64,000 nucleotides of DNA from Actinomycetota bacterium (GTDB lineage: Bacteria > Actinomycetota > Acidimicrobiia > Spongiisociales > UBA4744): the NCBI GenBank assembly GCA_013152275.1, contig JAADGS010000040.1:1-64000 (forward strand), in the 5' to 3' direction. Below, piece by piece: positions 27,854 through 64,000 of the stretch (its first letter is position 1; every line of letters starts with the position of its first letter). The notes beneath the pieces are model-generated. The model was not told the DNA's origin. It saw only the letters and a program-made list of their open reading frames with translations, and did no database searches. The translations under genes and the position numbers were made by a program.

Positions 27854-29121
27854 GCACCCGCCTCCTCGATGGCTTCCTCGAAGACCGTGAGCGCTTCGTC
27901 GAGCGGACCGTCCAGATGTGCCTCCATCAGGAACCACGCCTCGAACGCCGACGGTGGGATGAGAACGCCGCGACGCAGCGCAGCATGAAAGAAGCGGTTG
28001 AAGAGATCGGTGTCGATGCCCACCACGTCATCCCACGTCTCGACGTGCTCCACACCGAGGAACACGCCGATCATGCCGCCGACATGGTGCACGGTTGCAC
28101 TCATACCCGCTCTCCTTGCAGCCGCCTCGACACGGTTCGCAACGCGTGATCCCGCCTCGTCGAAATGCTCGTACAACTCGGGATGGTCGCGAAGGTAGCG
28201 CAGGGTGACAAGACCGGCGGCGGTGGCAAGCGGGTTCCCGGCAAGGGTCCCCGCCTGATAGACGGGGCCGTCGGGAGCGATCATCCGCATCAGGTCCGCG
28301 CGCCCTCCATAGGCCGCAGCCGGAGCGCCGCCCGCCATCACCTTGCCCAGGGTCGTCAGGTCCGGCATGACCCCGTACAGGCCCTGGGCAGACGTGGGTC
28401 CGACACGAAACCCGGTCATGACCTCATCGAAGATCAGGAGGGCACCGTGGCGATCGCACAGGGAGCGAAGACCTTCGAGGAACCCGGGAACAGGCGGGAT
28501 GCACCCCATGTTGCCGGCAACCGGCTCGACGATCACCGTCGCCACGGTGTCGTCCAACAACGCCTCCACAGACGCCAGGTCGTTGTAACGGGCGACCCTG
28601 GTGTCACCGGCGGTGCCCGGAGGAACACCGGGGCTGCTGGGAGTACCGAAGGTTGCCAGGCCGCTGCCGGCCTTGACCAGGAACGGATCGGCGTGGCCGT
28701 GATACCCACCTTCGAACTTCACGATGACGGAACGTCCCGTTGCCGCCCTCGCCAGGCGAACCGCCGAGGCGGTCGCCTCGGTTCCGCTGTTGACCATCCG
28801 GACGATTTCGACCGACGGCACCATGTCGACGATCAGCTCGGCGAGTTCGACCTCGCCAGGAGTGGGAACTCCGAACGACGTACCGGCGGCCGCGGCATCC
28901 TGGACGGCGCGAACGACGTCGGCTCGGGCATGGCCGAGGATCAATGCTCCCCACGACGCGATGAAGTCGATCAGTTGCTCACCATCGGTCGTGCGGATGC
29001 GAGCACCATCTCCTTCGAGGATGAACGGAGGGGTTCCACCGACGGCACCGAATGCCCGCACCGGTGAGTTGACGCCGCCCGGCATGACTGCCCTGGCCCG
29101 ATCCCACAGCGTGCCCATCAT
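27850..29121 (-). CDS. hemL: Glutamate-1-semialdehyde 2,1-aminomutase
   Basis: PGGVNSPVRAF, SGTEA, FDEVMTGFR, YQAGTL. Confidence 0.97.
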   Translation of the reverse strand: MMGTLWDRARAVMPGGVNSPVRAFGAVGGTPPFILEGDGARIRTTDGEQLIDFIASWGALILGHARADVVRAVQDAAAAGTSFGVPTPGEVELAELIVDMVPSVEIVRMVNSGTEATASAVRLARAATGRSVIVKFEGGYHGHADPFLVKAGSGLATFGTPSSPGVPPGTAGDTRVARYNDLASVEALLDDTVATVIVEPVAGNMGCIPPVPGFLEGLRSLCDRHGALLIFDEVMTGFRVGPTSAQGLYGVMPDLTTLGKVMAGGAPAAAYGGRADLMRMIAPDGPVYQAGTLAGNPLATAAGLVTLRYLRDHPELYEHFDEAGSRVANRVEAAARRAGMSATVHHVGGMIGVFLGVEHVETWDDVVGIDTDLFNRFFHAALRRGVLIPPSAFEAWFLMEAHLDGPLDEALTVFEEAIEEAGA

Positions 29122-30095
29122 TGCTCCTGGAGCATCCGTGCGGCATCGAGCGCGAAGTAGGTGAGGATGACATCTGCGCCCGCCCTGGCAATCCCGACGA
29201 GCGATTCGAGCATCACCCTGTCCCGGTCGAGCCATCCGTTGGCTCCTGCCGCCTCGATCATGGAGAACTCACCGGACACCTGATACGCGGCCATCGGAAG
29301 GTCGATTCGGTCTCGCAGGTCGCGGATGATGTCCTGGTACGGCCCGGCAGGCTTGACCATCACCATGTCGGCTCCTTCTTCCACGTCCAGAGCAGCCTCT
29401 CGACGTGCCTCTCTCGCGTTGCGCGGATCCATCTGGTAGGAGCGCCGGTCTCCGAATGCCGGGGTTGAATGTGCCGCATCCCTGAACGGACCGTAGAAGG
29501 CGGACGCATACTTGACCGCGTACGAGCAGATGGCGATGTCGGAGTGTCCTGCCTGGTCGAGTGCCGAACGGATCGCCCCGACCCTGCCGTCCATCATGTC
29601 GGAGGGCGCGATGACATCCGCACCGGCGTCCGCGTAGGCGAGCGCTGCTTTCGAGAGCAGGGGAAGGGCGGCATCGTTGTCGACCTCTTCGCCGCGCAAC
29701 GGCCCACAGTGGCCGTGGCTGGTGTACTCGCAAAGGCACACGTCGGCCCACGTGACCAGGTCGGGAACGGCCGAGCTCACCGCTTCGATAGCTTGCGGAA
29801 CGGGTCCTCGAGGATCCCATGCAGATGAACCGAGATCGTCCTTGGTGTCGGGGATACCGAAGAACATCATGCCTCCCACACCGGCATCTGCAGCCTCATG
29901 TGCGAGGTCCACGATCTTGTCGACCGAACGCTGTGCGTGGCCGGGCATCGAGCGGATAGGCCGCTCGATCCCGCTTCCGGGCACGACGAACACGGGAAGC
30001 ACGAATCGGGCAGGATCGAGCCTCGTCTCTGCCACCGTTTCTCGAAGCTTCGAAGTGCGTCGAAGGCGTCGAGGACGGACAATCGGGAAACTCAT
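29118..30095 (-). CDS. hemB: Porphobilinogen synthase
   Basis: DVCLCEYTSHGHCG, SDMMDGR, MVKPA. Confidence 0.97.
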   Translation of the reverse strand: MSFPIVRPRRLRRTSKLRETVAETRLDPARFVLPVFVVPGSGIERPIRSMPGHAQRSVDKIVDLAHEAADAGVGGMMFFGIPDTKDDLGSSAWDPRGPVPQAIEAVSSAVPDLVTWADVCLCEYTSHGHCGPLRGEEVDNDAALPLLSKAALAYADAGADVIAPSDMMDGRVGAIRSALDQAGHSDIAICSYAVKYASAFYGPFRDAAHSTPAFGDRRSYQMDPRNAREARREAALDVEEGADMVMVKPAGPYQDIIRDLRDRIDLPMAAYQVSGEFSMIEAAGANGWLDRDRVMLESLVGIARAGADVILTYFALDAARMLQEQ

Positions 30096-30769
30096 ATGTG
30101 TACCTCCAAACGGGCCGAGAGGGCCTGCGCCAACAGATCGAACCGTGGGACCTCCGGCATGACGTCGACCGTACCGCCCAGACTCTCGACCTGCCCGGCC
30201 GTACGCGAACCGATGGCGCCCACGACCGGCCCCGCCAGCGAACGAGCCAGCACCCATCCTCGCACCGCCGATGGGGAACCGAAGGCGACGGCGTCGACCG
30301 AATCGCCCTGCGGCGGGATCGGAACGGTGCGATACACCGGTGCTGCGTCGAGGTTCCCAACCTTCGACGCCAAGAGGCGGAGCGTCTCGGGGTCCGTTCC
30401 CTGCGCGTGCGGGAAGACGACCCACCGGCCGGGAGCGTCGATCTCTGCCGCGAGAGCCAGGCCGGTCGAACTGCCCACGAGCGACACCCGACCGCCTCGT
30501 TCCGTGACGGCCGCCGCGGTTGCAGAACCGACCGCCGCGACCGGAGCTGCCGGAGCGTGCTCACCCCAGAGGAGGTTCAAGGCCGTCACCGAGGTGAGCA
30601 CGACGAGATCGGCGCGCTCGGCCTTCCGTCGCATCTCGTCGATCACACGCGCCGGAACCGCCTCGATACGAACACAGGGCAGCCGGACCGGTCGCAGCCC
30701 TGCGGCGGTGAAGATGGCCTCGACCCTCGGTGAGCGTTCGGCGGCGGTGGTGATGCCGATCCTGTTCAC
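30092..30769 (-). CDS. hemD: Uroporphyrinogen-III synthase
   Basis: LTS, AVGSATA, VYRT, FGSPSAV, AIGSRT; position after hemC. Confidence 0.85.
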   Translation of the reverse strand: MNRIGITTAAERSPRVEAIFTAAGLRPVRLPCVRIEAVPARVIDEMRRKAERADLVVLTSVTALNLLWGEHAPAAPVAAVGSATAAAVTERGGRVSLVGSSTGLALAAEIDAPGRWVVFPHAQGTDPETLRLLASKVGNLDAAPVYRTVPIPPQGDSVDAVAFGSPSAVRGWVLARSLAGPVVGAIGSRTAGQVESLGGTVDVMPEVPRFDLLAQALSARLEVHI

Positions 30770-31626
30770 AGGCGAAGTTCCTTCCGTGCCGCGGCGACGA
30801 CTGCGGCGGGATCCTCGCCGTGAACGGTGACGCGGCGCGGTCCGAGCTCGTCGTCGACGAACGCCACCAAGGAGAGCCCATGTTTGCTGCGCGATGCGAG
30901 CGCGCCGAGAGCCGACCGACACCCCGCCCCGGTGGCCGAGAGCAGAAGGCGCTCTGTCTCGACCAGCAGTCTCAACCTCGGATCGTCGATGGCCGCCACG
31001 ACATCGCGAGCCGGCCCATCGGCGAGGGTCTCGATGGCAAGGACACCTTGGCCGGGAGCCGGCGTCATCTCGTCGACGATGAACCGTTGAGCGATCTCGT
31101 CGATCAGTCCGAGCCGCTCCAGACCGGCCTCGGCGAGTATCACTGCCGCGACCTCGCCATCGTGGACTCGCCGGACCCGGGTTGGGACGTTGCCGCGCGG
31201 TTCCACCGTTCGCAGGTCGGGTCGAAGAGCGAGGAGCTGTGCTATTCGCCGAGGACTGCCCGTCCCGACGATCGCCCCCTCTTCGAGACGATCGAGCGAA
31301 GCGCCGACGAGCACGTCGTACGGACTGCGGCGCTCGGGATAGGCTGCAACGACGAGTCCGTCCGGCCGGTCTGTGGGCAGGTCTTTGAGCGAGTGCACCG
31401 CGAGATCTGCCCGACCGTCGAGAACCGCCGCCTGGACCGACCGCACGAACGCCCCCATCTCGGTCAGCGCCGTCACCGGAGAGACCCGGTCACGATCTCC
31501 TGCCGACTCGACGATGACCAGACGTGTCTCGATTCCGCGTGCCACCGCCCGCAACATCGATGCGACGGCATACGCCTGCGCCACCGCGAGGTCGGACGCT
31601 CTCGTCGCGATTCGGATCTCACGCAT
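30766..31626 (-). CDS. hemC: Hydroxymethylbilane synthase
   Basis: IATRASDLA, AVHSLKDLP, PAPGQG, GAGC. Confidence 0.95.
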   Translation of the reverse strand: MREIRIATRASDLAVAQAYAVASMLRAVARGIETRLVIVESAGDRDRVSPVTALTEMGAFVRSVQAAVLDGRADLAVHSLKDLPTDRPDGLVVAAYPERRSPYDVLVGASLDRLEEGAIVGTGSPRRIAQLLALRPDLRTVEPRGNVPTRVRRVHDGEVAAVILAEAGLERLGLIDEIAQRFIVDEMTPAPGQGVLAIETLADGPARDVVAAIDDPRLRLLVETERLLLSATGAGCRSALGALASRSKHGLSLVAFVDDELGPRRVTVHGEDPAAVVAAARKELRL

Positions 31627-32812
31627 CCTTGGCACCGAAGATCTCCGCGAGGAGTTCGGCCGCCTCTGCTCCTCGCGTACCCGCACCGAGATAGGACAGT
31701 GGACGGTGCAAGACACGGTGCGCAACCGTTTCGGCAAGCTGCTTGACCAAGGCGTCGGACAACCCCTCCGCCGCCTGGATCTTTGGAGCGAACCGTTCGA
31801 CCTCTTCGGCCACCGTGGCATCCGCCTCGGCGAGAATGGCTGCGATCACCGGGCCTGCAACATGCCGATTCTCGAGACGCGCCCAGTTCTGGCGAGCGGC
31901 ATCCGCCACCAGCGCTTCGAGGTCGGCCGACACCTGCTCCGTTCGCGCCCGTTCCGCGAGGGCATCGAGATTCACATATGTGAGCTTCTGCATGTCCTCT
32001 GCAGGAGAAAAGTCGGGAGGCATCGCGAGGTCGATCAGCAGCAGGGCGTCGGTTCTCTGCTCGAGTGCCCGTGCCAGGACCTCCTGCCCGAAGAGCTCCC
32101 GTTTCGCCGCAGTTGCGGAGATGACCACCGGCATCGTGGCCAACGCTTCCGGAGCATGTTCGATATGGAGAACGTGGTCCGACTCGAACCGGACTTCGTT
32201 CGGCCTGCGCGCATACACCGTCACGAGGGGAGCCTCGGCGGCCCTGCCCCGAAGCGCCTCCGTTGCAGCCCGGGCCATCGCCCCTGCACCAAACACCGCG
32301 ACTTCCCCCTTACCGTCTACGAGCTTGGCTGCGATGAGCGCAAGGGACCCCGCCGCGGTGTCGGGAAGGACTCTGCGAGCGCTGCGACCGGCTCCGACCG
32401 CGCTCTCGAGCAGCTTGCCCAGACTCCCACCGATCACACCGGCGGTGCGGCCCAGGTCGATCGCGTGACGGAACTGGGCAAGAACCTCCGGCTCACCGAC
32501 AACCGGCGAGTCGAGCCCGGCTGCCACCCGATACAGATGCAGCAGTACGTCATGATCGTTGCGACGGACGCCCGAGGTGGGAAGGGTCAGGTCCGAATAG
32601 AGGATCTCGGCGACCCTGTCCAGGGCGGCATCACACCCGACACTGACGATCTCGACACGCAAACACGTCGATAGGACGAACGCGTCGATCCCGGCCTCGC
32701 TGACCCGTCGATAGGCGGCGGTGAGGGCGTCATCTGCGAGTGCGAGCTTGGCGCGATCCACCGATGAGGTGTGAGGATGCGCAAATGTCAGCGAGCTGAT
32801 CCGAAAGGCCAT
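31619..32812 (-). CDS. hemA: Glutamyl-tRNA reductase (divergent)
   Basis: LSTCLRVE (usually TCNR), GLDSPVVGE, GAGAM, IDLAMP; first gene of the hem operon. Confidence 0.88.
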   Translation of the reverse strand: MAFRISSLTFAHPHTSSVDRAKLALADDALTAAYRRVSEAGIDAFVLSTCLRVEIVSVGCDAALDRVAEILYSDLTLPTSGVRRNDHDVLLHLYRVAAGLDSPVVGEPEVLAQFRHAIDLGRTAGVIGGSLGKLLESAVGAGRSARRVLPDTAAGSLALIAAKLVDGKGEVAVFGAGAMARAATEALRGRAAEAPLVTVYARRPNEVRFESDHVLHIEHAPEALATMPVVISATAAKRELFGQEVLARALEQRTDALLLIDLAMPPDFSPAEDMQKLTYVNLDALAERARTEQVSADLEALVADAARQNWARLENRHVAGPVIAAILAEADATVAEEVERFAPKIQAAEGLSDALVKQLAETVAHRVLHRPLSYLGAGTRGAEAAELLAEIFGAKDA

Positions 32813-53262: not shown

Positions 53263-54393
53263 ATGATCATCGGAGTCCCCAAGGAATCTCTACATCACGA
53301 GCATCGGGTTGGCCTGACTCCGGACGCCGCAGCCCACCTGCACAGGCTCGGACACACGGTTCTGGTCCAACACGACGCAGGACTGGGTGCCCGATTCTCC
53401 AACCACGAGTATGAGCAGGCCGGCGCGCAGATCGTCTACAGCGCGGAGGAGGCCTACCGACGTGCCGATCTCGTCACCAGGATCGGCACGATGTCTTCGG
53501 TCGAGCTGGATCTCCTCAAGCCCGGATCCGCAATCTGCAGTTTTCACCACATGGCGGTCGCCTCGAAAGCACTGGTCGACGGGTTGGTCGAGCGAGAGAT
53601 CACCGCCGTCTCCTACGAACTCATCGAGGACGCAGCAGGCAACCGCCCGATCCTCGCACCGTTCAGCGAGATGGCGGGAATGCTCGCTGTGCATCTCGCC
53701 GGCTACTACCTCCAGAACGACTCCGGGGGAAGGGGAATCCTGTTGGGCAACGTGCCGGGGATCTCCCCACCGACCGTCGTCATCCTCGGTGCGGGAATCG
53801 CCGGCCGGACGGCGGCATGTCACGCGAGAGCGACCGGGGCCCGCGTCGTCGTGATCGACACCGACATGGCGAAACTGAGATCGGTGAGTTCCCGATGTGG
53901 CGGTCAGGTTGCGACTGCGAACGCCAGTCTCGAGCCGCTGGAGAACTACACGGCTTCGGCAGACGTGCTCATCGGCGCGGTGCTCATTCCCGGTTCGCGA
54001 GCTCCGATTCTGGTCACCGAGGACATGGTCGAAGGGATGCGTCGAGGAAGTGTGATCGTCGACCTCTCGATCGACCAGGGAGGTTGCGTGGAAACCAGCC
54101 GGCCGACGGGTCTCGACCAGCCGACCTACATCGTCCACGATGTCGTGCACTACTGCGTGCCGAACATGACGGCGAACGTCGCCCGCACGGCCTCCAAAGC
54201 GCTCACGAGAGCCGTCCTGCCCCAACTGGTGTCGCTGGCCGAACGAGGGACCGGAGGTGCTGCGGCGGCGGATCCCCATCTCGCCGCGGGAGTGGTGATG
54301 TATGAAGGAAACCTCGTGCACCGCCAGGTCGCCGCCGCCCACGGCCTGCCCTTCGTCGAGCTGAGATCGCTCCTGACGGGAGCCGGCGCATGA
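53263..54393 (+). CDS. ald: Alanine dehydrogenase family protein (divergent active site)
   Basis: IGVPKE...EHRV, SEMAG, GAGIAG, IDQGGCVETS, YCVPNM; GGAGG SD. Confidence 0.85.
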   Translation: MIIGVPKESLHHEHRVGLTPDAAAHLHRLGHTVLVQHDAGLGARFSNHEYEQAGAQIVYSAEEAYRRADLVTRIGTMSSVELDLLKPGSAICSFHHMAVASKALVDGLVEREITAVSYELIEDAAGNRPILAPFSEMAGMLAVHLAGYYLQNDSGGRGILLGNVPGISPPTVVILGAGIAGRTAACHARATGARVVVIDTDMAKLRSVSSRCGGQVATANASLEPLENYTASADVLIGAVLIPGSRAPILVTEDMVEGMRRGSVIVDLSIDQGGCVETSRPTGLDQPTYIVHDVVHYCVPNMTANVARTASKALTRAVLPQLVSLAERGTGGAAAADPHLAAGVVMYEGNLVHRQVAAAHGLPFVELRSLLTGAGA

Positions 54394-55688
54394 ACTGGTT
54401 CGACGACTACAGATCGAAGCTGCAGACTCCGCACCAGGCAGTCTTCCAGATCCAGAGCGGCGACCGTGTCTACTACGGAGGGAACGCGGCGATCCCGTGG
54501 GCACTGGTCAGGGCGCTCGCAGAACGAGGCGAAGAACTCTCCGACGTCCAACTCAATCACGTTCTCCTCGTTGGCGACGATCCCCTCTCCGATCCGGCGA
54601 TGGCCGATCATTTCCGTCACAACTCGCTCTTTGTGGGACCGGCGGATCGGGCTGCGGTGAACGAAGGACGCGCAGACTACGTTCCCATCTTCCTGCACCA
54701 GATTCCGCGCCTGTTCAAAGAGAACATCATTCCCCTGGATGTCGCAATGTTGATGGTGTCCCCGCCGGACGAGCACGGCTTCATGAGCCTCGGCGTCGAG
54801 ACGCTCGCCTCCCAGGCCGCCTACCAGTCGGCCAAGAAGGTGATCGTCCAGGTGAACACGAAGATGCCGCGCATTCTCGGCGACTCGTTCCTCCACGTGA
54901 GCAGGGTCGACACGATCGTCGAGCACACCGAGGCGTTGCCCAACCTGATACCGAAACCGGCCACAGAGGTCGAACGCAAGATCGCGGCGCACGTACTCGA
55001 GCTCATTCCGCCGCGTTCGACGGTGCAGATGGGCATTGGCGGCATCCCAGACTCGGTGTACGAGTCGATGGAAGGCGATCTACAGCTTGGGATCCACACC
55101 GAGATGCTGTCGGACGGAGCCATGCGCGCCATCGAACGCGGCGTCGTCACCGGGGCATACAAGTCGCTCCATCCCGGGAAGGTCGTGATCACGTTCGCGA
55201 TGGGAAGCGACGATCTCTACGAGTTCCTCGACAACAATCCGCTCATCGAGGCACACCCCGTCGACCACACGAACGATCCGTTTGTCGTTTCCCAGAACGA
55301 CAACATGGTCGCGATCAACTCTGCGATCGAGCTGGATCTGACCGGACAAGTCTGTTCCGACTCGATCGGCCCATACATCTACTCGGGGTTCGGCGGGCAG
55401 GTCGACTTCATTCGCGGTGCGGCGAAGTCCAAAGGCGGCCGACCCATCATCGCGCTTCCCGCAACCGCCAAGGGCGGAACGCTCTCTCGCATCGTCCCGT
55501 TCCTGAAGCAGGGCGCCGGTGTGGTCACCAGCCGTGCCGATGTTCACTACGTCGTCACCGAATACGGCGTCGCCAACCTGTTCGGCATGAATCTCCGGGA
55601 ACGGGCAGAGGCGCTGATCGAGATCGCCGCCCCTCAGTTTCACGAGGAGCTGGAGGCCGCTGCGAAGGAACGCAAGCTGCTGCCGTGA
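54390..55688 (+). CDS. Acetyl-CoA hydrolase / 4-hydroxybutyrate CoA-transferase family protein
   Basis: QMGIGGIP, IHTEM, SGFGGQVDF, VTEYG. Confidence 0.92.
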   Translation: MNWFDDYRSKLQTPHQAVFQIQSGDRVYYGGNAAIPWALVRALAERGEELSDVQLNHVLLVGDDPLSDPAMADHFRHNSLFVGPADRAAVNEGRADYVPIFLHQIPRLFKENIIPLDVAMLMVSPPDEHGFMSLGVETLASQAAYQSAKKVIVQVNTKMPRILGDSFLHVSRVDTIVEHTEALPNLIPKPATEVERKIAAHVLELIPPRSTVQMGIGGIPDSVYESMEGDLQLGIHTEMLSDGAMRAIERGVVTGAYKSLHPGKVVITFAMGSDDLYEFLDNNPLIEAHPVDHTNDPFVVSQNDNMVAINSAIELDLTGQVCSDSIGPYIYSGFGGQVDFIRGAAKSKGGRPIIALPATAKGGTLSRIVPFLKQGAGVVTSRADVHYVVTEYGVANLFGMNLRERAEALIEIAAPQFHEELEAAAKERKLLP

Positions 55689-55799
55689 GACTCTCTGCCG
55701 GTACCCGGGGATGGCGAACGGATTCATCTCGAGCAGGTGCCGACATCGACCAGAGCGTGGTCCACCCCAGGAGAGGACCGAGCGAGTAGCGTCCTGTCC

Positions 55800-56525
55800 A
55801 TGGCCACCGTGCAGCTCTTCGTCACGTGCCTCGTCGATGCGTTCGCGCCGCAGGTTGGAGAAGCCGTCGTGGACCTTCTCGAGCGACTTGGACTGACCGT
55901 CGAGTTTCCCTTCGGACAGACGTGCTGTGGTCAGCCTGCGTTCAATGCCGGTTTCCGTGACGAAGCCCGGCGTATGGCCGTGCACACACTCGAGGTGCTC
56001 GACGCCACCGAAGGCATGATCGTGCTGCCATCGGGGTCGTGTGCGGACATGGTCATCCGCCACATCCCCGATCTCGTCGCCGACGACCCCGACCTCTCCG
56101 AGGCGGCTCAGAGGGTCGCGGCCAGGACGCGTGAGTTCACCTCGTTCCTGGTCGACGACCTCGACGTGACCGATGTGGAGGCCACCGGCGCCGGCTCCTG
56201 CACGCTACACCACTCCTGCCATGGCCTGCGGAACCTCGGCGTGAAGTCACAGCCTGAACGGCTCCTCGACAACGTCCAGGGAATGGATCGGGTGGAACTC
56301 GCGGACGCGACCGAGTGCTGTGGCTTCGGAGGCCTGTTCGCTCTCGAGATGCCCGACGTATCTATCGCGATGCTCGACAGGAAGCTCGACAACATCGAGG
56401 CAAGCGGTGCCGACACGATCGTCGGAGGCGACATCTCGTGTCTCCTGCACATTGCAGGAGGTCTGCACCGGCGAGGGAGCTCCATCGAGGTTCGCCACAT
56501 CGCCGAGATCCTCGCCAAACGATGA
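55800..56525 (+). CDS. lutA: Lactate utilization protein A (CCG domains)
   Basis: FVTCLVD, QTCCGQP, SGSC, HHSCH, CCGFGG. Confidence 0.92.
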   Translation: MATVQLFVTCLVDAFAPQVGEAVVDLLERLGLTVEFPFGQTCCGQPAFNAGFRDEARRMAVHTLEVLDATEGMIVLPSGSCADMVIRHIPDLVADDPDLSEAAQRVAARTREFTSFLVDDLDVTDVEATGAGSCTLHHSCHGLRNLGVKSQPERLLDNVQGMDRVELADATECCGFGGLFALEMPDVSIAMLDRKLDNIEASGADTIVGGDISCLLHIAGGLHRRGSSIEVRHIAEILAKR

Positions 56526-57910
56526 CCTCCTTCCTCGAACGAGCGCGCTCGGACATCGGCACTCCCCCGATTGCCGCGCTGCAGATCGGCGCGCGACGAT
56601 TCTCCGACCATCGCGCGCACGCCGTCGAGGCATTCCCGCCGATGGACGACATGCGAGATCGCGCTCGAGCAATCCGCCTCCACACGCTCGCGAATCTGGA
56701 TCGGTATCTGGCCCAGTTCGCAGATGCTCTCGAAGGGGTGGGAGGGCACGTGTTCTTCGCCGCGGATGCCCACGAAGCCAACGAGTACGTCGTACAACTT
56801 GCGCACGCCCGAAACGTGGAGCGGATCGTCAAGTCCAAATCCATGCTCACCGAGGAGCTGCACCTCAACGACGCCCTCGAAGCCGAGGGGATGGAGGTCG
56901 TCGAAACCGATCTCGGAGAGTTGATCGTGCAGCTCGCGAACGACCGCCCATCACACATCATCGCCCCGGTCCTCCACAAGACCCGCTTCGAGATCGGCAC
57001 GCTGTTCGAAGAGAAGCTTGGCGTCCCGTACACAGATGATCCGATCCAACTGAACACGATTGCCCGCCGCCATCTCCGTCCCCTGTTCCTCACCGCGGAC
57101 ATGGGGATCAGCGGCGTGAACATCGCTGTCGCGCAGACCGGTTCCATCTGCATCGTCACGAACGAAGGCAACGGTCGCCTCACCACCACGGCGCCCAGAA
57201 TCCACGTTGCGATGTTGGGTGCGGAACGCCTCGTCCCATCGATCGGGGACATGTCCGTCATCCTGGAGGTACTCGCCCGCAGCGCGACAGGCCAGAAGCT
57301 GAGCGTCTACACGAACGTCCTCACCGGCCCTCGCCGCCCCGGTGAACCGGACGGCCCGGACGAACTCCATGTCGTGATCGTCGACAACGGGCGCTCGAAG
57401 GTCCTGGCGGGTCCAAGCTCCGAGATCCTGGCCTGCATCCGCTGCGGAGCGTGCCTCAACGTCTGTCCCGTGTACCGGACCGTCGGCGGGCACGCCTACG
57501 GCAGCACCTATCCGGGACCCGTCGGATCGGTGCTCACCCCGGCACTGTTCGACCTCGACGAATGGTCGGATCTGCCGTACGCGTCCACGCTCTGCGGAGC
57601 ATGCCTGGAAGTATGTCCCGTTCGTATCGACATTCCCCGACTCCTGCTCGATCAGCGCAACCTGTCCGTGCAGACGCGAACCGGACCCATGTGGATGCGA
57701 CGCCCGCTGCGTGCCTACGCAGGTGCAGCGACGCACCCGGGCCGCTTTCGCGCGCTGCTGCGTGCCGGTGCCGTCATCGGTCGTCTGTTCCGCACCGGAT
57801 GGATCCGCCGGCTTCCCTGGCGAGGAGCCGCATGGACCCGGGGCAGGGATCTGCAGGCACCAGTCAAGTCGTTTCATCGACGCTGGAAGGAGCGCAACCG
57901 TGGATCGTGA
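56522..57910 (+). CDS. lutB: Lactate utilization protein B (Fe-S)
   Basis: KSKSM, ETDLGE, NEGN, CIRCGACLNVCP, YPGPVG. Confidence 0.94.
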   Translation: MTSFLERARSDIGTPPIAALQIGARRFSDHRAHAVEAFPPMDDMRDRARAIRLHTLANLDRYLAQFADALEGVGGHVFFAADAHEANEYVVQLAHARNVERIVKSKSMLTEELHLNDALEAEGMEVVETDLGELIVQLANDRPSHIIAPVLHKTRFEIGTLFEEKLGVPYTDDPIQLNTIARRHLRPLFLTADMGISGVNIAVAQTGSICIVTNEGNGRLTTTAPRIHVAMLGAERLVPSIGDMSVILEVLARSATGQKLSVYTNVLTGPRRPGEPDGPDELHVVIVDNGRSKVLAGPSSEILACIRCGACLNVCPVYRTVGGHAYGSTYPGPVGSVLTPALFDLDEWSDLPYASTLCGACLEVCPVRIDIPRLLLDQRNLSVQTRTGPMWMRRPLRAYAGAATHPGRFRALLRAGAVIGRLFRTGWIRRLPWRGAAWTRGRDLQAPVKSFHRRWKERNRGS

Positions 57911-58553
57911 CGCGTTCTTGGCTCGGATCCGGTCGGCGTCGGCGTCCCTGTCGGCCTCTTCCGACCCGGGGATTCTCGTCCCCGAGCAGCCCCCCGGTGA
58001 TCTCGTAACCCGCTTCTGCCGTGAGCTCGAAGCCGTCGACGGGGTGCCCCACCGTGCTGTGGATACGGATGATGCCCTCCGCATCGTCCTCGAGCTGATG
58101 GAAGGACACCGTTGGTTCATGGCCCGTGGGCCACTGCCGGTGCCCGGCCTTGCCGGCCGCCTGATTCATGACGGCTATCGGATCATGAACAGCGATGTGC
58201 CACCTGACCCGGCGGCGCGTATCGAGCACCAGCTCGCCTACAAGACACTCGAGGTCGGGATCACCGCGGCGGACGCCGCTCTGGCCGAGTCGGGGTCGAT
58301 CGTCGTCACGTCGGGACGCGAATCACCGCGGATGGCGTCCCTGATCCCGGAGACCCACATCGCTCTGGTCCGCACCGATCAGATCTATCCGTCGCTCAGT
58401 CACTTCCTCGCCGAACGCTCCGAGGTGGCGACCCGGTCGAGCAACATGGTCGTGATCACCGGGCCGAGCCGCACCGGCGACATCGAGCAGACCCTGACGC
58501 TGGGTGTGCACGGTCCGCGCCAGGTCCACGTCGTCCTCATCCCGTTCTCGTGA
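57900..58553 (+). CDS. lutC: Lactate utilization protein C (LUD domain)
   Basis: AESGSI, ITGPSRTGDIEQTLTLGVHGP. Confidence 0.92.
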   Translation: MDRDAFLARIRSASASLSASSDPGILVPEQPPGDLVTRFCRELEAVDGVPHRAVDTDDALRIVLELMEGHRWFMARGPLPVPGLAGRLIHDGYRIMNSDVPPDPAARIEHQLAYKTLEVGITAADAALAESGSIVVTSGRESPRMASLIPETHIALVRTDQIYPSLSHFLAERSEVATRSSNMVVITGPSRTGDIEQTLTLGVHGPRQVHVVLIPFS

Positions 58554-58591
58554 CGGTTGAGCCGGTTAGTTCCCGCGAAGCGTCACGAGAA
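58545..58591. repeat. 47-bp palindromic REP-like element overlapping the lutC and DUF885 stop codons
   Basis: Inverted near-identical copy of 12561..12607. Confidence 0.85.
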
Positions 58592-60251
58592 CGGAGGCAG
58601 TCCAGTCTTTCACCAATCGATCCAGCGTCGTGAGTGGCATCATGCCCGAGTCCAGAACGGTGTCGTGGAATCCCTTGACGTCAAAGCTCTCACCAAGGGC
58701 CGCCTCTGCCTCGCTCCGCATCCGCTGGATCTCCAGACGTCCGATCATGTAGGCGAGCGCCTGACCCGGCAAGCCGATGTAGCGATCGACCTCGTTCTCG
58801 ATCGTGCCGATCGACATCGGGGAGTTCTCGGCGAAGAAGTCGATCGCCTGCCGGCGGCTCCACCCTTTCGCGTGCAGGCCGGTGTCGACGACCAGCCGAC
58901 CGGCGCGCATCGAGTCGGCCGAGAGCATGCCGATGCGCTCGAGGGGCCCCGAGTACAAGCCCATCTCGTCGGCAAGACGTTCGGTGTACAGGCCCCAGCC
59001 TTCGGCGTAGGCCGTGACGCCTGCGTGCTTTCGAAAGTCGGGGATTCCTTCGAGTTCCTGAGCGATCGCCAACTGAAGATGGTGGCCCGGGATCCCCTCG
59101 TGATACGCCATCGCCTCGATCTCATAACGGCCCCAGTGTGTCGGATCGGACGTGTTGACGAAGAACATGCCGGGTCGAGATCCGTCGGTGGCCGGCGGGA
59201 AATAGAACGCGGTCGGCCCGCTCGGTGTTTCGGCAACGATGCAGTCGGCCTTCGGAAGACGTCCGAACCAGTCCCCGATCGCGGCATTGGCCTTTGCGAG
59301 CGCACGCTCCGAAGCGGCGACGACTTCCGGGCCTGCCACAAAGTGCAGATCCGGATCCTCGCGTAGACGTGTGAAGATCTCGCTGAGATCGTCGGTGCCG
59401 AGAGCCTCCTTACCGAGCTTTCGATACTCGCCGGCCAACCGCTCGACCTGGTCGAGACCGATGTCATGGATCTCATCGGCCTTCAACCGCAGCGTCGTGT
59501 GCTGATGAATCGCCTTCGCGTAGAGTTCGTCGCCGCCAGGTACCCAGGACACGCCGCTTCGCTCCTGCGGCCTGGCGAACGGCAAGACCTCGTTCGCGAT
59601 CGTGTCTCGATACCGTTGCAGCGATGGCCGGATCGCGTCACGAACGACGGTGGCGAGACGCTCCTTCCACGCTTCGGTTGCCGACGTGTCGAAGGATTCC
59701 GGGACCCGTACATGCAGAAATGGATTCTCTTCCATCGGCAACGCGAGCAGCGCGTCGAGCTGCCCGACCGTCTTCTCGCTCGTCAGCGCAGGCGGTGTCC
59801 TGCCATCGACAAGCCCTTCGCGCAGGCGCTCGCCCATCTCATCGAACACTCGAGCGAATCCTCGGTACTTCTCGACCAACGCCTCGGCATGCTCGGACTC
59901 CTCGATGGGCAACTGGGGGATCAGCACGGGGATCATCGCCTGCAAACCCATGGCGTGGTTGACCGCGAACTCTGCCGCCCTCGTCTCGAGGGCATCGGCC
60001 CCGGTGGAGGCTTCGAAGATCAGCACATCCCTGGTGATTCGTTCGTCCTTGTCGAGACCTGCCTGATCGATCGCCTCGGCCCGTCCTGCGAAGTCCCGAA
60101 GCCGGGCGATCTGGGCGTCCTCGGCCTCTCTCGACACTTCCTCGACCTTCTCGTCGAACCGGTGATCTCCGAGCATCATGGCGTGCGTCGGGTTGGTCTC
60201 CATCGTGTAGTCCCAGTACTCGTCGCCGAGCCTGCGCAGTTCCTCGTTCAC
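58566..60251 (-). CDS. DUF885 domain protein
   Basis: HEGIPGHHLQ, EGWGLYTE, RLVVDTGLH, PGQALAY. Confidence 0.93.
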   Translation of the reverse strand: MNEELRRLGDEYWDYTMETNPTHAMMLGDHRFDEKVEEVSREAEDAQIARLRDFAGRAEAIDQAGLDKDERITRDVLIFEASTGADALETRAAEFAVNHAMGLQAMIPVLIPQLPIEESEHAEALVEKYRGFARVFDEMGERLREGLVDGRTPPALTSEKTVGQLDALLALPMEENPFLHVRVPESFDTSATEAWKERLATVVRDAIRPSLQRYRDTIANEVLPFARPQERSGVSWVPGGDELYAKAIHQHTTLRLKADEIHDIGLDQVERLAGEYRKLGKEALGTDDLSEIFTRLREDPDLHFVAGPEVVAASERALAKANAAIGDWFGRLPKADCIVAETPSGPTAFYFPPATDGSRPGMFFVNTSDPTHWGRYEIEAMAYHEGIPGHHLQLAIAQELEGIPDFRKHAGVTAYAEGWGLYTERLADEMGLYSGPLERIGMLSADSMRAGRLVVDTGLHAKGWSRRQAIDFFAENSPMSIGTIENEVDRYIGLPGQALAYMIGRLEIQRMRSEAEAALGESFDVKGFHDTVLDSGMMPLTTLDRLVKDWTASVLVTLRGN

Positions 60252-60346: not shown

Positions 60347-60370
60347 TGATACAATATGACTGACTGGTCA
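60347..60370 (+). promoter_or_regulatory. Extended -10 promoter with adjacent TetR-type operator
   Basis: TGaTACAAT (60347..60355) followed by the imperfect palindrome TGACTGACTGGTCA (60357..60370), upstream of tetR. Confidence 0.6.
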
Positions 60371-60386
60371 CCCACATTGGAGCGTC

Positions 60387-61001
60387 ATGGGTCGAATCAC
60401 CGCCGAGGCGAAGCTCGAGGTCCGCAACCGACTCCTCGCCACGGCTGCAGAGCACTTTGCCCGCGACGGCCTCGAGCGAACGAGTATCGACGCCATCGCG
60501 TCCGGAGCGGGCGTCGCCAAGGGAACCGTCTACAACTACTTCCGATCCAAGGACGAGCTTTTTGCCGAGGTCATCGCGGAGGGTGCACGACGCGCGGTAC
60601 AGCGATACGAAGCCAATCCGGCGGCGGGATCGACCAGGGACCGGCTCCGGGGACTGGCCGAAGCAGACGTGCAGGTCGTGCGGGAACAGGAGCCTTTCCA
60701 GCAGGTCGTGATCAGGGAAGCCCTGGCGTTTCGACCTGAAACCTATCCCCTCGTCATCAGGCATCTCGCCCCGTTTGTCGGCGCCGTGGCACATGTCCTC
60801 GACGAAGGTGTGTCCGCAGACGAGGTGCGCGCAGATCGGCCCACTGCCGAACTCGCCCTGGCTTTTGTCGGCATCCTCGGCATCCTGTATGTACAACACT
60901 GGGGCTCCGGCGGCACGTGGCCGAAACTCGACGAGATCCCCGACCTCGCGGTCCTGCTGTTCTTCGAGGGTGTCGGACGACGGCCAGGGAAGCAACGATG
61001 A
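60387..61001 (+). CDS. TetR/AcrR family transcriptional regulator
   Basis: TSIDAIASGAGVAKGTVYNYFRSKDELF helix-turn-helix. Confidence 0.95.
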   Translation: MGRITAEAKLEVRNRLLATAAEHFARDGLERTSIDAIASGAGVAKGTVYNYFRSKDELFAEVIAEGARRAVQRYEANPAAGSTRDRLRGLAEADVQVVREQEPFQQVVIREALAFRPETYPLVIRHLAPFVGAVAHVLDEGVSADEVRADRPTAELALAFVGILGILYVQHWGSGGTWPKLDEIPDLAVLLFFEGVGRRPGKQR

Positions 61002-61651
61002 GCACGTACGCGTTCATGCGCTGGCTCGAGTCGACACCGTCTCGCTACGACCGTGGCATGCACCTCTTGAGCAGGGGACGTATGTCCCGCGTCTACGACC
61101 GTGTTGCCGAACTGGCGGCAGGACCGGGGCTGCGCGTCCTCGATGTCGGCTGCGGAACCGGAGGGGTCACCCTGGCGTGCGCTGCACGAGGAGCAGAGGC
61201 CGTCGGCCTCGACCGGGATGCCGGCATGCTCGAGGTCGCCGCAGCGAAACCGGCGCCTGCCGACGGAAGCGTCGAATGGGTGGAGTTGGGGGCGGCCGAG
61301 ATCGAGGACCGATTCGATCCCGAAACGTTCGATAGCGTCGTGTCGTGTCTCGCCTTCAGCGAGATGTCCCCGCAAGAACGCGCCTACGTGCTCGGGATCG
61401 TCCATGACCGACTTCGTCCGGGAGGCCGGCTGGTGATCGCAGACGAGGTCGAACCGACAGGCGCCGGCGCCCGTCTGCTCTACCGATTGCTACGAATCCC
61501 CATGACCGTGGCGACCTGGTTGCTCACTCAGAAAACAACACATCCCGTGCACGGCCTCACCGACGCCGTGCGCCAAGCGGGTTTCGCGAACATCGACGAG
61601 GAACGTCCGTGGCCGGCCTTCGTCATCTTGAGTGCGAGGAGACCATCATGA
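60998..61651 (+). CDS. Class I SAM-dependent methyltransferase (corrinoid-protein-associated, CpaM-like)
   Basis: VLDVGCGTG motif I, FDSVVSC, LRPGGRL; N-terminus MSTYAFMRWLESTPSRYDRG; ATGA overlaps on both sides. Confidence 0.85.
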   Translation: MSTYAFMRWLESTPSRYDRGMHLLSRGRMSRVYDRVAELAAGPGLRVLDVGCGTGGVTLACAARGAEAVGLDRDAGMLEVAAAKPAPADGSVEWVELGAAEIEDRFDPETFDSVVSCLAFSEMSPQERAYVLGIVHDRLRPGGRLVIADEVEPTGAGARLLYRLLRIPMTVATWLLTQKTTHPVHGLTDAVRQAGFANIDEERPWPAFVILSARRPS

Positions 61652-62745
61652 AACTACTGGACTCCATATTCGACACGGCGTTCAGGTTCTTGCCACATCG
61701 CTCGAAGACGGGGCTCTTCCCGATCGGTGATCCCGACCGCTCCTCACCCGTCATCGTCACGGGCAACTACACCCTCACCGTGCGACGCGTGTCCAAGGCG
61801 CTGCAGGGTGAGGACGTCTGGCTGCTCGTCACCGACAGCAGAGGCATCAACGTGTGGTGCGCTGCAGGAGGAGGCCATCTCACCCATCATGACGTGATCG
61901 CCGCGGTTCGAACATCCCAAGTCGCAGACCGGGTCGACCATCAAGAGCTGATCCTGCCCCAGTTGAGCGCCACCGGGGTCGAGCGAAATCGTGTCGAGGA
62001 GGCGACCGGATGGCACGCGACGTGGGGACCGGTCCACGCGACGGACCTGCCTGCATTCCTGAGACGCGGCCGGCACGCCGTGAGGGAAGAGCGAGCCGTG
62101 CGCTTCCCGATGAGTGATCGCCTCCAGATGGCAGTGATGTGGACCGCCCCGATGGTGCCGATCCTGTGGTTGATCCTGTGGGCGATCAGCGGACCGCTAC
62201 CGGCGGTCGTCGGCGCGGTGGCCATCACGGCCATCGTGCTGGGACTCTTCGCAGGCATGCCGTGGCTGCCGCTGAGGACACACCGAGGGCTACTCGTCTA
62301 TGGCGGCCTGGCCTTGGCCGGGTTCGCGTTCGGTGCTGCCCTCTTCACGGCCGCCGGGGCCCTGACGACGAGAAACCTCATCGTGCTCGCCGCCGCGTGT
62401 GTGGTCGGGACCGGGATCGTGTCGGTGGATGTCGCCGGGTCGACACCGCTGCTGTCGAGTTCGGTCAACCCGAGCGATTTCAGGGTCGAGTTGCTGGTCG
62501 ACCGTTGCACCGGGGCTGCACAGTGCGTGCTCGTATGCCCGCGTGACGTGCTCGTCATGAACGGCCACGTCCACAAGGTCGAGATCGTCCGGCCCGCGAA
62601 CTGCATCCTGTGTGGCGCCTGCATCGTCCAGTGCCCCGAAGATGCCCTCCGCTTCCGGTTCGACGACGGGAGGGTCGTCGAGCCGGCGACGATACGCAGA
62701 ACACGCCTCAATCTGCTGGGCAAACGCACCATCGACGTGACCTAG
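61648..62745 (+). CDS. Fused HgcAB-like protein (corrinoid domain, TM domain, ferredoxin)
   Basis: IGDPDRSSPVIVTGNY, GINVWCAAGG cap helix, LILPQLSATGV, WGPV; about 4-5 TM segments; CxxAxxCxxxCP and CxxCxxCxxxCP. Confidence 0.9.
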   Translation: MKLLDSIFDTAFRFLPHRSKTGLFPIGDPDRSSPVIVTGNYTLTVRRVSKALQGEDVWLLVTDSRGINVWCAAGGGHLTHHDVIAAVRTSQVADRVDHQELILPQLSATGVERNRVEEATGWHATWGPVHATDLPAFLRRGRHAVREERAVRFPMSDRLQMAVMWTAPMVPILWLILWAISGPLPAVVGAVAITAIVLGLFAGMPWLPLRTHRGLLVYGGLALAGFAFGAALFTAAGALTTRNLIVLAAACVVGTGIVSVDVAGSTPLLSSSVNPSDFRVELLVDRCTGAAQCVLVCPRDVLVMNGHVHKVEIVRPANCILCGACIVQCPEDALRFRFDDGRVVEPATIRRTRLNLLGKRTIDVT

Positions 62746-62747
62746 TG

Positions 62748-63560
62748 TCACGCGAGCAGCAGCTTCTCCAGCCTCCGCGCCGCAACCACGATGCCAACCG
62801 CACCCATCACGACCAGGAACCCGATGTGGTAGAGCATGGTCCATTCGAAGATCCCGAGCGTAAGCGAACGAATCAGCACGACACCGTGATAGAGCGGCGA
62901 CAGTTGCGCCGCCCATCGCAGCCACTCGGGATACACGCTGAGCGGGTAGAACGTCGCCGAGAACAGAAACAGGGGAAGCGTGACGAGTTGCACGAGATCG
63001 AAGTCCTGCCAGGATCGCATGAACGACGTGGCCGCCATGCCTGCTGCAGCGAATCCGAAACCGAGCAGGAGCGCCGCAGGGACGGCGAGCAGCCCCCACA
63101 GCGACGGCATCAGGCCCATGATCCACATCACGACGAGGAACCCCGTCGCATACAGCGCTCCTCGAAACAGCGACCACGTGATCTCTCCGATGGCAATGTC
63201 GCCGGGCGCCATCGGAGTCGCCAGCACAGCGTCGTAGATCTTCGCGTACTTGAGCTTGAAGAAGATGTTGAACGTCGATTCGTAGACGGCACCGTTCATG
63301 GCCGCCGCACCGAGGAGCGCGGGCGCCACGAACGCCGCATAGGAGATCGGTTCCCCGGTGGGTCCCACGACATCACCGACGAGTTTGCCGAGTCCGATAC
63401 CGATGGAGAAGAGATAGAAGAGCGGTTCGAAGAATCCGGAGAAGATGACGATCCATGCGTGCCGGTACACGAGGAAGTTCCGTTCGAGAAGATGTCGTGC
63501 CCGCCGACTGCCCATCGCCGACGGCGGCACGATCCTGGCCATGAGGGTCCCGGTGGTCAT
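62748..63560 (-). CDS. ABC-2 type transporter permease (NodJ/DrrB-like)
   Basis: FEPLFYL, YAAFVAP, LFSATFYPL, PLYHGV. Confidence 0.9.
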   Translation of the reverse strand: MTTGTLMARIVPPSAMGSRRARHLLERNFLVYRHAWIVIFSGFFEPLFYLFSIGIGLGKLVGDVVGPTGEPISYAAFVAPALLGAAAMNGAVYESTFNIFFKLKYAKIYDAVLATPMAPGDIAIGEITWSLFRGALYATGFLVVMWIMGLMPSLWGLLAVPAALLLGFGFAAAGMAATSFMRSWQDFDLVQLVTLPLFLFSATFYPLSVYPEWLRWAAQLSPLYHGVVLIRSLTLGIFEWTMLYHIGFLVVMGAVGIVVAARRLEKLLLA

Positions 63561-64000
63561 TGCCCCAACTTCTTCGTGAACGTGTGGATCGCCACGAGCG
63601 TGCCTCCGACGATCCACGCGAGAAGGTATGCCACATGTACGAACGGCGAGAAGGTCGTGGCCAGACCGAGGGTCGTTGCGCGAGTCAGCTCGACGCCATG
63701 CCACAGCGGCACGGCGTAGGCGAGCGGCTGCATCCAGCCGGGAAGCTGTGTGATCGGAAAGAACGTCCCGGAGAACAGGAACATGGGGACGATCCCGAAC
63801 CGGAAGAGGTTGCTCAATCCGGTGTCGCGCTTCAACCATGCCGCGTAGCCGCTGACCGGTGCGGCGAATGCCAGCCCGGTCAGCACCGCGGGGAACACTG
63901 CCAGCAATCCCACACCGACGGCCACGGCTCCGAAAGCGGCCATGACGAGGACGAACACGGTCGACACGAAGATCATACGAATGCCGACCCAACCGAGATG
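63557..64000 (-). CDS. ABC-2 type transporter permease (5' end outside the window)
   Basis: PMFLFSGTFFPITQLP...PLWHGVEL. Confidence 0.88.
   Translation of the reverse strand, partial: HLGWVGIRMIFVSTVFVLVMAAFGAVAVGVGLLAVFPAVLTGLAFAAPVSGYAAWLKRDTGLSNLFRFGIVPMFLFSGTFFPITQLPGWMQPLAYAVPLWHGVELTRATTLGLATTFSPFVHVAYLLAWIVGGTLVAIHTFTKKLGQ

Follow-up and report, generated by a model that had tools for sequence, protein, structure and literature searches.

A TetR-linked operon pairs a SAM methyltransferase with an HgcAB-like corrinoid and iron-sulfur fusion protein in an Actinomycetota bacterium

The window analysed here, a 64,000-nucleotide stretch of contig JAADGS010000040.1 from an Actinomycetota bacterium, contains a three-gene operon on the + strand. 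The genes encode a TetR-family repressor (tetR, 60387-61001, 204 aa; PF00440 (TetR_N) and PF17932), a corrinoid protein-associated class I SAM methyltransferase (cpaM, 60998-61651, 217 aa; NF043040), and an HgcAB-like fusion protein (61648-62745, 365 aa; NF043039, Pfam CdhD and Fer4). As described in the first-pass annotation, the open reading frames are chained by ATGA stop/start overlaps at 60998 (tetR/cpaM) and 61648 (cpaM/HgcAB-like gene). All three genes are under purifying selection, with dN/dS values of 0.12-0.24 against two same-genus genomes. The operon is not supported as a new system: NCBIfam already has a named family for each gene and recognises their pairing. CpaM (NF043040) and the fusion protein (NF043039) form a named, uncharacterised pair, of which the operon is a typical copy. 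None of the literature matches listed names CpaM, NF043039, NF043040 or "corrinoid protein-associated", with subscription journals and bioRxiv supplements lying outside the coverage. In kin, the cassette is flanked by a convergent ABC-2 permease gene and a divergent DUF885 gene, both on the other strand; neither recurs at distant loci.

Upstream of tetR, we predict a promoter with an extended -10 box, TG-n-TACAAT (60347-60355, + strand). A TG-n-TAnAAT-type box occurs at the same position in all three closest relatives (similar boxes in loci L001, L002, and L004), but a -35-dependent sigma-70 scan found no full promoter (0 against 0.3 expected). The predicted TetR operator (60354-60377, no strand) overlaps the -10 box and the predicted start site. 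The palindrome noted earlier is present but longer than a simple TGAC..GTCA, namely a 24-bp imperfect palindrome, and related palindromes stand upstream of homologous tetR genes. A matrix trained with the own genus left out gave the operator 28.5 bits and the runner-up 15.6 bits over 3,071,197 genome positions. The operator is unique in the host genome, which rules out a wider TetR regulon. A close homologue of tetR was found in 6 of 25 related genomes, always adjoining the cassette; judged from such gene adjacency, the TetR is dedicated to it. The cassette TetR contains no Cys residue and its nearest solved structures are DarR/FadR-type lipid-metabolism regulators, making a bare metal ion less likely as the inducer. 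Across the family, a TetR gene lies within 900 nt upstream of cpaM at 19 of 67 loci, as against none of 51 control loci, and these TetRs are of at least three types. Judged by eye, loci L097-L099 have ArsR-like regulators, with an ars operon adjoining L099. Copper-pump neighbours were set aside as a clue, since 3 of 80 loci are too few.

The fusion protein passes NF043039 with 391.6 bits (cut-off 285), and its AlphaFold2 model has a pLDDT of 91.7. It was initially read as an HgcA-type corrinoid domain joined to a membrane domain and a two-cluster ferredoxin. All of these domains are indeed carried by one chain, but with just seven cluster cysteines and a predicted four helices. The corrinoid-binding domain (residues 16-140; 61693-62067, + strand; PF03599) matches the fold of the CFeSP large subunit 2h9a with a Z-score of 19.6 and an rmsd of 1.9 Å over 124 residues. 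Its cap motif GINVWCAAGGGH (61843-61878, + strand), with GINVWCAAGG at residues 66-75, includes Cys71 as the predicted cobalt ligand; the cap residues G66 and N68-A72, Cys71 among them, are invariant in 73 of 73 aligned relatives. The membrane domain (62110-62442, + strand), delineated by the model, hydropathy, and conservation, is predicted to comprise four long hydrophobic helices spanning residues 155-265, the first of which is 27 residues long. It closes with a conserved D/E-x-x-G-x-T/S-P motif, and a whole-chain search gave it no convincing fold match (Z under 8). The ferredoxin (62479-62661, + strand) contains seven cysteines, with CxxAxxCxxxCP as motif 1 and a canonical motif 2. Because the first cluster motif is short of one cysteine, the domain probably holds [3Fe-4S] and [4Fe-4S] clusters and would be of the 7Fe rather than the 8Fe type; known 7Fe ferredoxins are a precedent for reading CxxAxxCxxxCP as a [3Fe-4S] site. 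A conserved basic C-terminal extension, R..LNLLG.R (62668-62742, + strand), occupies the place of the HgcB cysteine tail. Among the loci, it is found in 47 of 48 three-Cys proteins versus 1 of 16 four-Cys proteins, mostly within one clade.

The best Foldseek match of the fusion protein is the HgcA model 9a0b, and Cys71 corresponds to the conserved cap-helix Cys, the methyl-transfer ligand of HgcA. However, the protein falls below the cut-offs for HgcA (NF040863, 182 against 275 bits) and HgcB (NF040864, 44.5 against 99 bits). The cap NVWCAAGG ends with GG and does not match the high-stringency HgcA motif N[VI]WC[AS][AGS]GK (PMC10087281), and four transmembrane helices are predicted instead of five. 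As for HgcB, the first motif lacks the second Cys and no Cys follows residue 329. The C(M/I)ECGA motif, Cys73, and the C-terminal cysteine tail are all absent, whereas HgcB requires Cys73 and the tail cysteines for Hg methylation; in two sets of 63 and 114 relatives, just 4 and 2, respectively, have a Cys downstream of the clusters. In a quick maximum-likelihood tree, the fusion family lies outside the 6-row HgcA clade (SH-aLRT 99) and is the sister clade of HgcA. The HMM and phylogenetic comparison with HgcA and fused HgcAB thus confirms a protein of NF043039 separate from the HgcA clade, and the acceptor of this system is probably not mercury. A Wood-Ljungdahl CFeSP (AcsC/CdhE) was ruled out: the match to NF003195 is partial (83 bits, cut-off 306, aligned over residues 16-140 only), and the host genome, rated 100% complete, contains no other PF03599 gene.

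CpaM passes NF043040 with 271 bits (cut-off 180), and its AlphaFold2 model (pLDDT 89) shows a Rossmann SAM fold. YcgJ, Coq5, and CmoA are tied as structural matches at a Z-score of about 22 (Coq5: Z 22.2, rmsd 2.6 Å, 199 residues), and PmtA and UbiE/Coq5 are among the structural neighbours. No single substrate class stood out in the structure searches, and an Atlas search with CpaM returned methyltransferase clusters only. CpaM shares its fold with the UbiE/Coq5 and ArsM class I methyltransferases but lies far under both family cut-offs (TIGR01934, 46 against 158 bits; NF008823, 25 against 263 bits). Since CpaM has no conserved Cys or His beyond motif I, it is not an ArsM-type enzyme on its own. 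We ruled out an arsenite methyltransferase for lack of the conserved catalytic cysteines and by the HMM score, and UbiE/MenG likewise by its score, quinone genes not being recurrent in the neighbourhoods. CpaM has a UbiE/Coq5-like lid and the conserved acidic residues E11, D18, E122, D149, and E150.

The coupling of CpaM to the corrinoid gene is near-obligate. Counting this operon, the two adjoin at 82 of 83 non-HgcA loci (66 as separate genes, 16 in one reading frame), a count biased to the subfamily of the operon's fusion protein, by similarity to which the loci were picked; at true HgcA loci CpaM was found in none of six. The linkage to a methyltransferase, whose absence from homologues would have counted against the first-pass proposal, is strongly conserved. 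Conversely, among the matches of a metagenome scan with the CpaM alignment, mostly generic methyltransferases that served as the control, a corrinoid neighbour was present at 2 of 2 CpaM-grade loci versus 0 of 78 generic ones. Read by eye, PF03599 was on 119 of 120 long CpaM homologues among the matches listed (240 found). The trees of the two proteins are congruent (Spearman 0.68), with 18 of 23 strong splits identical and none conflicting. Covariation between them (177 pairs, effective 115) was rejected as phylogenetic noise: the top pairs, at z 7.8 and 7.4, exceed fully shuffled controls (z up to 4.9) but not clade-preserving shuffles (up to 8.3). The module also varies: L098 has no cpaM within 6 kb, about 13 more distant relatives have a hydrophobic N-terminal domain in place of CpaM, and the ferredoxin is wholly absent in 14 relatives (13 single-chain, one split). 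The locus neighbourhoods contain no conserved third partner or transporter. CpaM occurs in 3 of 301 genomes of the class and, in another phylum, in 2 of 301; close relatives are spread across many phyla and both domains, and plasmid records gave no match at E 1e-15. Of the TetR-controlled SAM/corrinoid/Fe-S module originally proposed, the repressor control, the self-contained layout, the conserved linkage, and the distinction from HgcAB hold; its novelty does not, and the ferredoxin is probably 7Fe.

The host has genes for cobamides and B12 enzymes (CobS, an adenosyltransferase, and two mutase genes) and for low-potential reductants (2-oxoacid:ferredoxin oxidoreductases and a NiFe hydrogenase). 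A bd oxidase is encoded and no haem-copper oxidase was found in the host genome; 3 of 5 tested hosts have haem-copper oxidases. The host AtpD is 64-70% identical to that of four unrelated genomes, a range that does not confirm the Acidimicrobiia-like host of the first-pass annotation.

Beyond the observed gene anatomy, family membership, linkage, fusions, operator, and host cofactor genes, we infer each chemical step of a methyl relay, which we favour tentatively, at somewhat under an even chance. CpaM would load a SAM methyl group onto the Cys-ligated cobalamin, from which a probably toxic, inducing electrophile would be methylated at the membrane. A host ferredoxin or similar donor would feed electrons through the distal, likely [3Fe-4S], and proximal [4Fe-4S] clusters to reduce the cobalt to Co(I); CpaM would then present SAM to form methyl-Co(III), in which Cys71 would be the lower ligand. 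As in HgcA, the thiolate-ligated methyl-cobalt could hand its methyl group to a soft electrophile in radical or carbanion form. This electrophile, an organometal(loid), chalcogen, or lipophilic xenobiotic, would arrive from the membrane without a cysteine shuttle, and it or its product would release TetR from the operator. The linkage, the congruent trees, the invariant cap Cys, the host cofactor genes, and the regulators, which suggest an inducible cassette, are in favour of the relay, as is the copper induction of P. furiosus PF0728 and PF0729 described below. With no conserved third partner or transporter near the loci, no methyl donor other than SAM is apparent. Also in favour, SAM methylates HgcAB by way of thiolate-ligated Co(I) (PMC11588087). 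However, HgcAB alone binds SAM with a KD of 33 µM (PMC11588087), and its relative therefore need not have a loader. The CpaM fold, moreover, is that of ordinary small-molecule methyltransferases such as Coq5 and CmoA, which could imply a substrate of its own. Ferredoxin-less relatives are ill-suited to two-electron reduction at each turnover, the relatives lacking CpaM also speak against the relay, and the TetR features point away from a bare metal ion.

Alternatively, the system might detoxify in two steps, a possible but rather doubtful reading: the corrinoid/Fe-S protein would reduce a lipophilic compound, by halogen removal, S-S cleavage, or reduction of Se, Te or S species, and CpaM would methylate the released nucleophile. 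Cobalamin with two clusters is the cofactor set of reductive dehalogenases, and the CpaM lid and acidic residues fit this sequence of events, as do regulation by a TetR and the export-type genes next to L045, L046, L047, and L054. A preprint reports dehalogenation of CCl4 and trihalomethanes by HgcAB (bioRxiv 10.64898/2026.04.26.720869). An invariant methyl-transfer ligand, fusions without a ferredoxin, and neighbourhoods without substrate-specific genes speak against it. The structural proximity of CpaM to UbiE/Coq5 and PmtA, the DarR/FadR-like TetR, and the membrane domain could instead indicate methylation of a membrane lipid or quinone, for remodelling or biosynthetic tailoring rather than detoxification; the rare and patchy distribution and the absence of recurrent lipid or quinone genes make this improbable. 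We give little credence to the idea that CpaM and the ferredoxin serve only to reactivate oxidised cobalamin by reductive methylation, in the style of methionine synthase, and that in catalysis methyl cations pass between a different set of donors and acceptors. The ferredoxin-less variants and the hosts with haem-copper oxidases, where frequent oxidation of Co(I) would be expected, would suit it, but the neighbourhoods show neither a recurrent second methyltransferase nor a recurrent donor-binding partner.

An inducible mercury or methylmercury methylase, missed in uninduced cultured carriers, is similarly far from likely. The motif mismatches, the missing Cys73 and tail cysteines, and the separate clade oppose it, as do two cultured carriers of the fused gene that were negative for methylmercury formation. 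The cap Cys is retained, however, and copper shock raised P. furiosus PF0728, a SAM methyltransferase, and PF0729, which we infer to be the fused HgcAB, by log2 5.0 and 3.4 (about 32- and 11-fold; PMC7830388 Suppl. Table 3). Both stand behind copZ, from which read-through may explain the induction; PF0730 was not raised by copper (PMC7830388). The published negative mercury test may hence have run uninduced: the available text on this assay (PMC4646819) mentions no inducer, and its authors note that a negative result is no proof of inability. The copper data offer a cheap route to revisiting this assay under induction. More broadly, CpaM and the HgcAB-like protein might represent a second class of metal(loid) methylase, cobalamin-dependent and inducible, in which a dedicated subunit does the SAM loading, the 7Fe relay tolerates oxygen, and activity extends to microaerobic and aerobic hosts; we regard this as unlikely. 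Were it true, the verdict that fused HgcAB does not methylate would rest on uninduced cultures, and a source of methylated soft metals and metalloids, possibly mercury species, would have been overlooked; mercury-gene surveys routinely exclude fused HgcAB on the basis of two negative cultures. As the operon is an ordinary copy for its family, its value lies in testability rather than surprise: it is a compact test system for an HgcA sister family with a near-obligate methyltransferase partner, and its dedicated repressor and defined operator provide a direct reporter handle on the inducing compound.

Among known systems, the CFeSP large subunit (AcsC/CdhE) shares the corrinoid fold, and CFeSP with MeTr (4djd) is a precedent for loading of a corrinoid protein by a separate methyltransferase. 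The CFeSP subunit is soluble, lacks the cap Cys, and receives its methyl group from methyl-THF via a TIM-barrel enzyme. The NF043039/NF043040 system corresponds to what Podar 2015, Gilmour 2018, and Lin 2023 describe as "fused HgcAB", and the operon has its gene order. By eye, the P. furiosus protein (AAL80853; Lin 2023 Table S1) shares the GGH-type cap and the LN.MG.R C-terminal extension, and carriers L041 and L052 belong to Aminicenantes and Atribacterota, lineages named by Podar. The P. furiosus genes are copper-responsive, and their first cluster motif contains four cysteines; the operon instead carries a TetR and operator of its own, and its motif contains three. With HgcA-HgcB, the fusion protein shares the CFeSP-type corrinoid domain with a cap Cys, the membrane domain, the two-cluster ferredoxin, and probably the route of the methyl group from SAM via Co(I) to the acceptor. 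It differs in being a single chain with a GG instead of a GK cap and four instead of five helices, and in its near-obligate class I methyltransferase partner, whereas HgcAB takes SAM directly.

The three reading frames described in the first-pass annotation, encoding 204, 217 and 365 residues with ATGA overlaps at 60998 and 61648, were all confirmed as tetR (60387-61001), cpaM (60998-61651) and the corrinoid gene (61648-62745), all on the forward strand. With dN/dS values of 0.12–0.24 against two same-genus genomes, all three are under purifying selection. In NCBIfam, the methyltransferase matches "corrinoid protein-associated methyltransferase CpaM" (NF043040, 271 bits; cut-off 180) and the 365-residue protein "HgcAB-like fusion protein" (NF043039, 391.6 bits; cut-off 285), whereas the HgcA (182 versus 275 bits) and HgcB (44.5 versus 99 bits) models stay below their cut-offs. 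The profile search and phylogeny suggested at first pass place the system outside HgcA/HgcB, and by sequence the window pair is a member of the already catalogued CpaM + HgcAB-like pair. The AlphaFold2 model of the fusion protein (pLDDT 91.7) comprises a CFeSP-type corrinoid domain (Z 19.6 and r.m.s.d. 1.9 Å over 124 residues against 2h9a), four long hydrophobic helices and a ferredoxin. Foldseek ranks the HgcA model 9a0b as its closest match. The literature searched, which stopped short of subscription journals and bioRxiv supplements, yielded no paper naming CpaM, NF043040 or NF043039 and no test of the pair's chemistry.

The conserved methyltransferase linkage held up in a neighbourhood survey of 89 loci above 100 bits, nine from related genomes (window included) and the best 80 of 589 from GTDB. 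Six encode true HgcA with the AAGK cap, none with CpaM; CpaM lies upstream in 82 of the remaining 83, as a separate gene (66) or in the same reading frame (16), the exception being locus L098. Conversely, a corrinoid gene was found at 2/2 CpaM-grade metagenome loci versus 0/78 generic methyltransferase loci. Long CpaM homologues numbered 240; among the 120 matches listed, PF03599 is present in 119, the remaining one being a TetR-CpaM fusion. A quick maximum-likelihood tree (91 rows, ferredoxin part removed, two fragments below 240 residues excluded; thorough search unfinished) places the window protein in a 79-row clade separate from HgcA (SH-aLRT 99), with 78 rows CpaM-linked. Its neighbours belong to Myxococcota, Acidobacteriota, Actinomycetota and two archaea, a mixture that suggests horizontal spread. 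The partner trees agree (73 pairs, Spearman 0.68), with 18 of 23 strong splits identical and no conflicts. The module is rare: NF043039 exceeds its cut-off in 9/61 relatives, all of one family, and CpaM occurs in 3/301 class genomes and 2/301 genomes of another phylum.

The first cluster motif of the window ferredoxin reads CxxAxxCxxxCP, and no conserved substitute for the missing cysteine was seen in the locus proteins. A three-cysteine first motif invites comparison with 7Fe ferredoxins, and this analogy, together with the unreplaced cysteine, makes a [3Fe-4S] cluster likely. By the HgcB model in the available text of PMC7305189, this candidate would be the cluster distant from cobalt. A basic C-terminal extension is found in 47/48 three-Cys but 1/16 four-Cys proteins; motif and extension mark mainly one clade. 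Thirteen loci (L057-L059, L065, L068, L069, L073, L074, L077, L078, L081, L088, L097), twelve of a Chloroflexota clade and one from Poribacteria, encode single-chain CpaM-corrinoid-membrane proteins lacking the ferredoxin, with no neighbouring ferredoxin gene seen.

The extended -10 box upstream of tetR (60347-60355), reported at first pass, recurs in the three closest relatives but was missed by a consensus scan, which requires a -35 element. Alignment of the upstream sequences of 13 tetR homologues defined a predicted operator, a 24-bp palindrome at 60354-60377 overlapping this box. It scores 28.5 bits with a matrix built without its own genus, against at most 15.6 elsewhere in the genome, so TetR appears dedicated to this operon alone. 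Close homologues of this TetR, which contains no cysteine and whose nearest solved relatives are of the DarR/FadR types, occur in 6/25 related genomes, beside the cassette every time. Three genomes of the same family (G010, G012, G014; 77–88% complete) keep cpaM and the corrinoid gene (L005, L006, L008); the window query found no such tetR upstream or elsewhere in them, and the pair may be unregulated there. The protein P0243 joins the window TetR type and CpaM in 426 residues and could be either a genuine fusion or an artefact of read-through. More widely, a TetR of at least three types lies within 900 nt upstream of cpaM at 19/67 loci versus 0/51 control loci, and ArsR-like genes were named by eye at L097-L099. 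L098 (5549-7200), which lacks cpaM and has its ArsR-like gene immediately upstream, and L099 (2456-7203), adjoining by eye an acr3/arsC/arsR-like ars operon, form a small subclade whose C-terminal tails are rich in cysteine; they are the strongest candidates for methylating metalloids.

Beyond the pair, neither a third enzyme nor a transporter recurs among the neighbours. In the window, a divergent DUF885 gene (58566-60251, reverse strand) and convergent ABC-2 permease genes (62748-64000, reverse strand) were assigned by domain scan; only two bases separate the permease stop from the corrinoid gene end, and no terminator was found. By eye, an operon of apparent alanine dehydrogenase, acetyl-CoA hydrolase/CoA transferase and LutABC-type lactate utilisation genes occupies 53263-58553 (forward), and an apparently complete haem biosynthesis cluster 23213-32812 (reverse). 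At L045, L046, L047 and L054 the pair lies, by eye, inside or next to TetR-led operons with ABC-2 permeases or LolA-like genes, weakly hinting that lipophilic compounds may be exported. The host could plausibly supply cofactor and reductant: it encodes CobS, cobalamin adenosyltransferase, two methylmalonyl-CoA-mutase-type proteins, 2-oxoacid:ferredoxin oxidoreductases, a NiFe hydrogenase and a bd oxidase. Its genome gave no haem-copper oxidase; among five other carriers tested, three possess one. The window gene is the only PF03599 gene of the host; a CdhE/AcsC-type corrinoid domain, absent from the host, is present in some relatives (L010-L014; G019, G044, G013, G035, G011).

Among related proteins, P0417, P0428, P0441, P0455 and about nine similar representatives (450–500 residues) form an HgcAB-like subfamily in which a hydrophobic N-terminal domain of about 140 residues, with no Pfam match at 1e-6, replaces CpaM; their cap is mostly WCSS.AGH. 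P0484, P0459 and P0485 combine the true HgcA cap (NVWCAAGK) with a fused ferredoxin, P0484 keeping a cysteine-rich HgcB-type tail, and by sequence may be real mercury methylases; "fused HgcAB" thus denotes two different things.

The first-pass observation stands, its interpretation only in part. Tight coupling, repeated fusion and the want of another donor make it very probable that the pair jointly catalyses a reaction dependent on SAM and cobalamin. Within it, we tentatively favour a relay in which CpaM would load the SAM methyl group onto Co(I), from which it would pass to an electrophile, by analogy with HgcA: cap Cys71, invariant among aligned relatives, corresponds to the HgcA methyl-transfer ligand, and CpaM lacks ArsM-type cysteines. 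The lost cysteine shuttle, the membrane domain and the repeated recruitment of TetR/ArsR suggest that the acceptor would be the inducing toxic compound, arriving from the membrane. Against this relay, HgcAB needs no loader, the purified protein taking SAM directly (KD 33 μM; available text of PMC11588087), and 14 relatives lack the ferredoxin. Reduction of the compound followed by methylation is a somewhat doubtful alternative; halomethane dehalogenation by HgcAB is reported in the available part of a preprint (10.64898/2026.04.26.720869). Structure searches liken CpaM to ordinary small-molecule methyltransferases, which also counts against the relay; methylation of a lipid or quinone is unlikely, and a role in reactivation only is improbable.

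An inducible mercury methylase is equally hard to credit. The window cap ends in GG and fails the high-stringency HgcA rule (available text of PMC10087281). HgcB Cys73 and the tail cysteines, required for mercury methylation according to PMC7305189, are not present in the fusion protein; a cysteine beyond the clusters occurs in 4/63 locus proteins and 2/114 long fusions. Pyrococcus furiosus and Methanococcoides methylutens, with fused genes, gave no methylmercury (PMC4646819 and PMC5893877), and PMC10083202 places the fused genes as the sister clade of HgcA.

By accession numbering, the fused protein AAL80853 is presumably PF0729, and PF0728 is a candidate CpaM. As far as the available texts go, AAL80853 is the P. 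furiosus fused protein (PMC7438021) and by eye shares the cap type and C-terminal extension of the window clade (sequence from the PMC10083202 supplement). Copper shock raised the transcripts of PF0727 (CopZ), PF0728 and PF0729 by 6.7, 5.0 and 3.4 log2 units and left PF0730 unchanged (0.28), PF0728 being annotated "SAM-dependent methyltransferase" and PF0729 "Ferredoxin" (PMC7830388, available text). If both identities hold, P. furiosus, the single cultured model organism, keeps this gene pair in an operon responsive to metal stress, and its cells may not have been induced when they tested negative for mercury methylation; the rise could equally well reflect read-through from copZ. The genome-unique operator, the likely 7Fe relay variant and the copper-induction lead are new here. 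The window system resembles HgcAB in working outline, yet it is not HgcA/HgcB.
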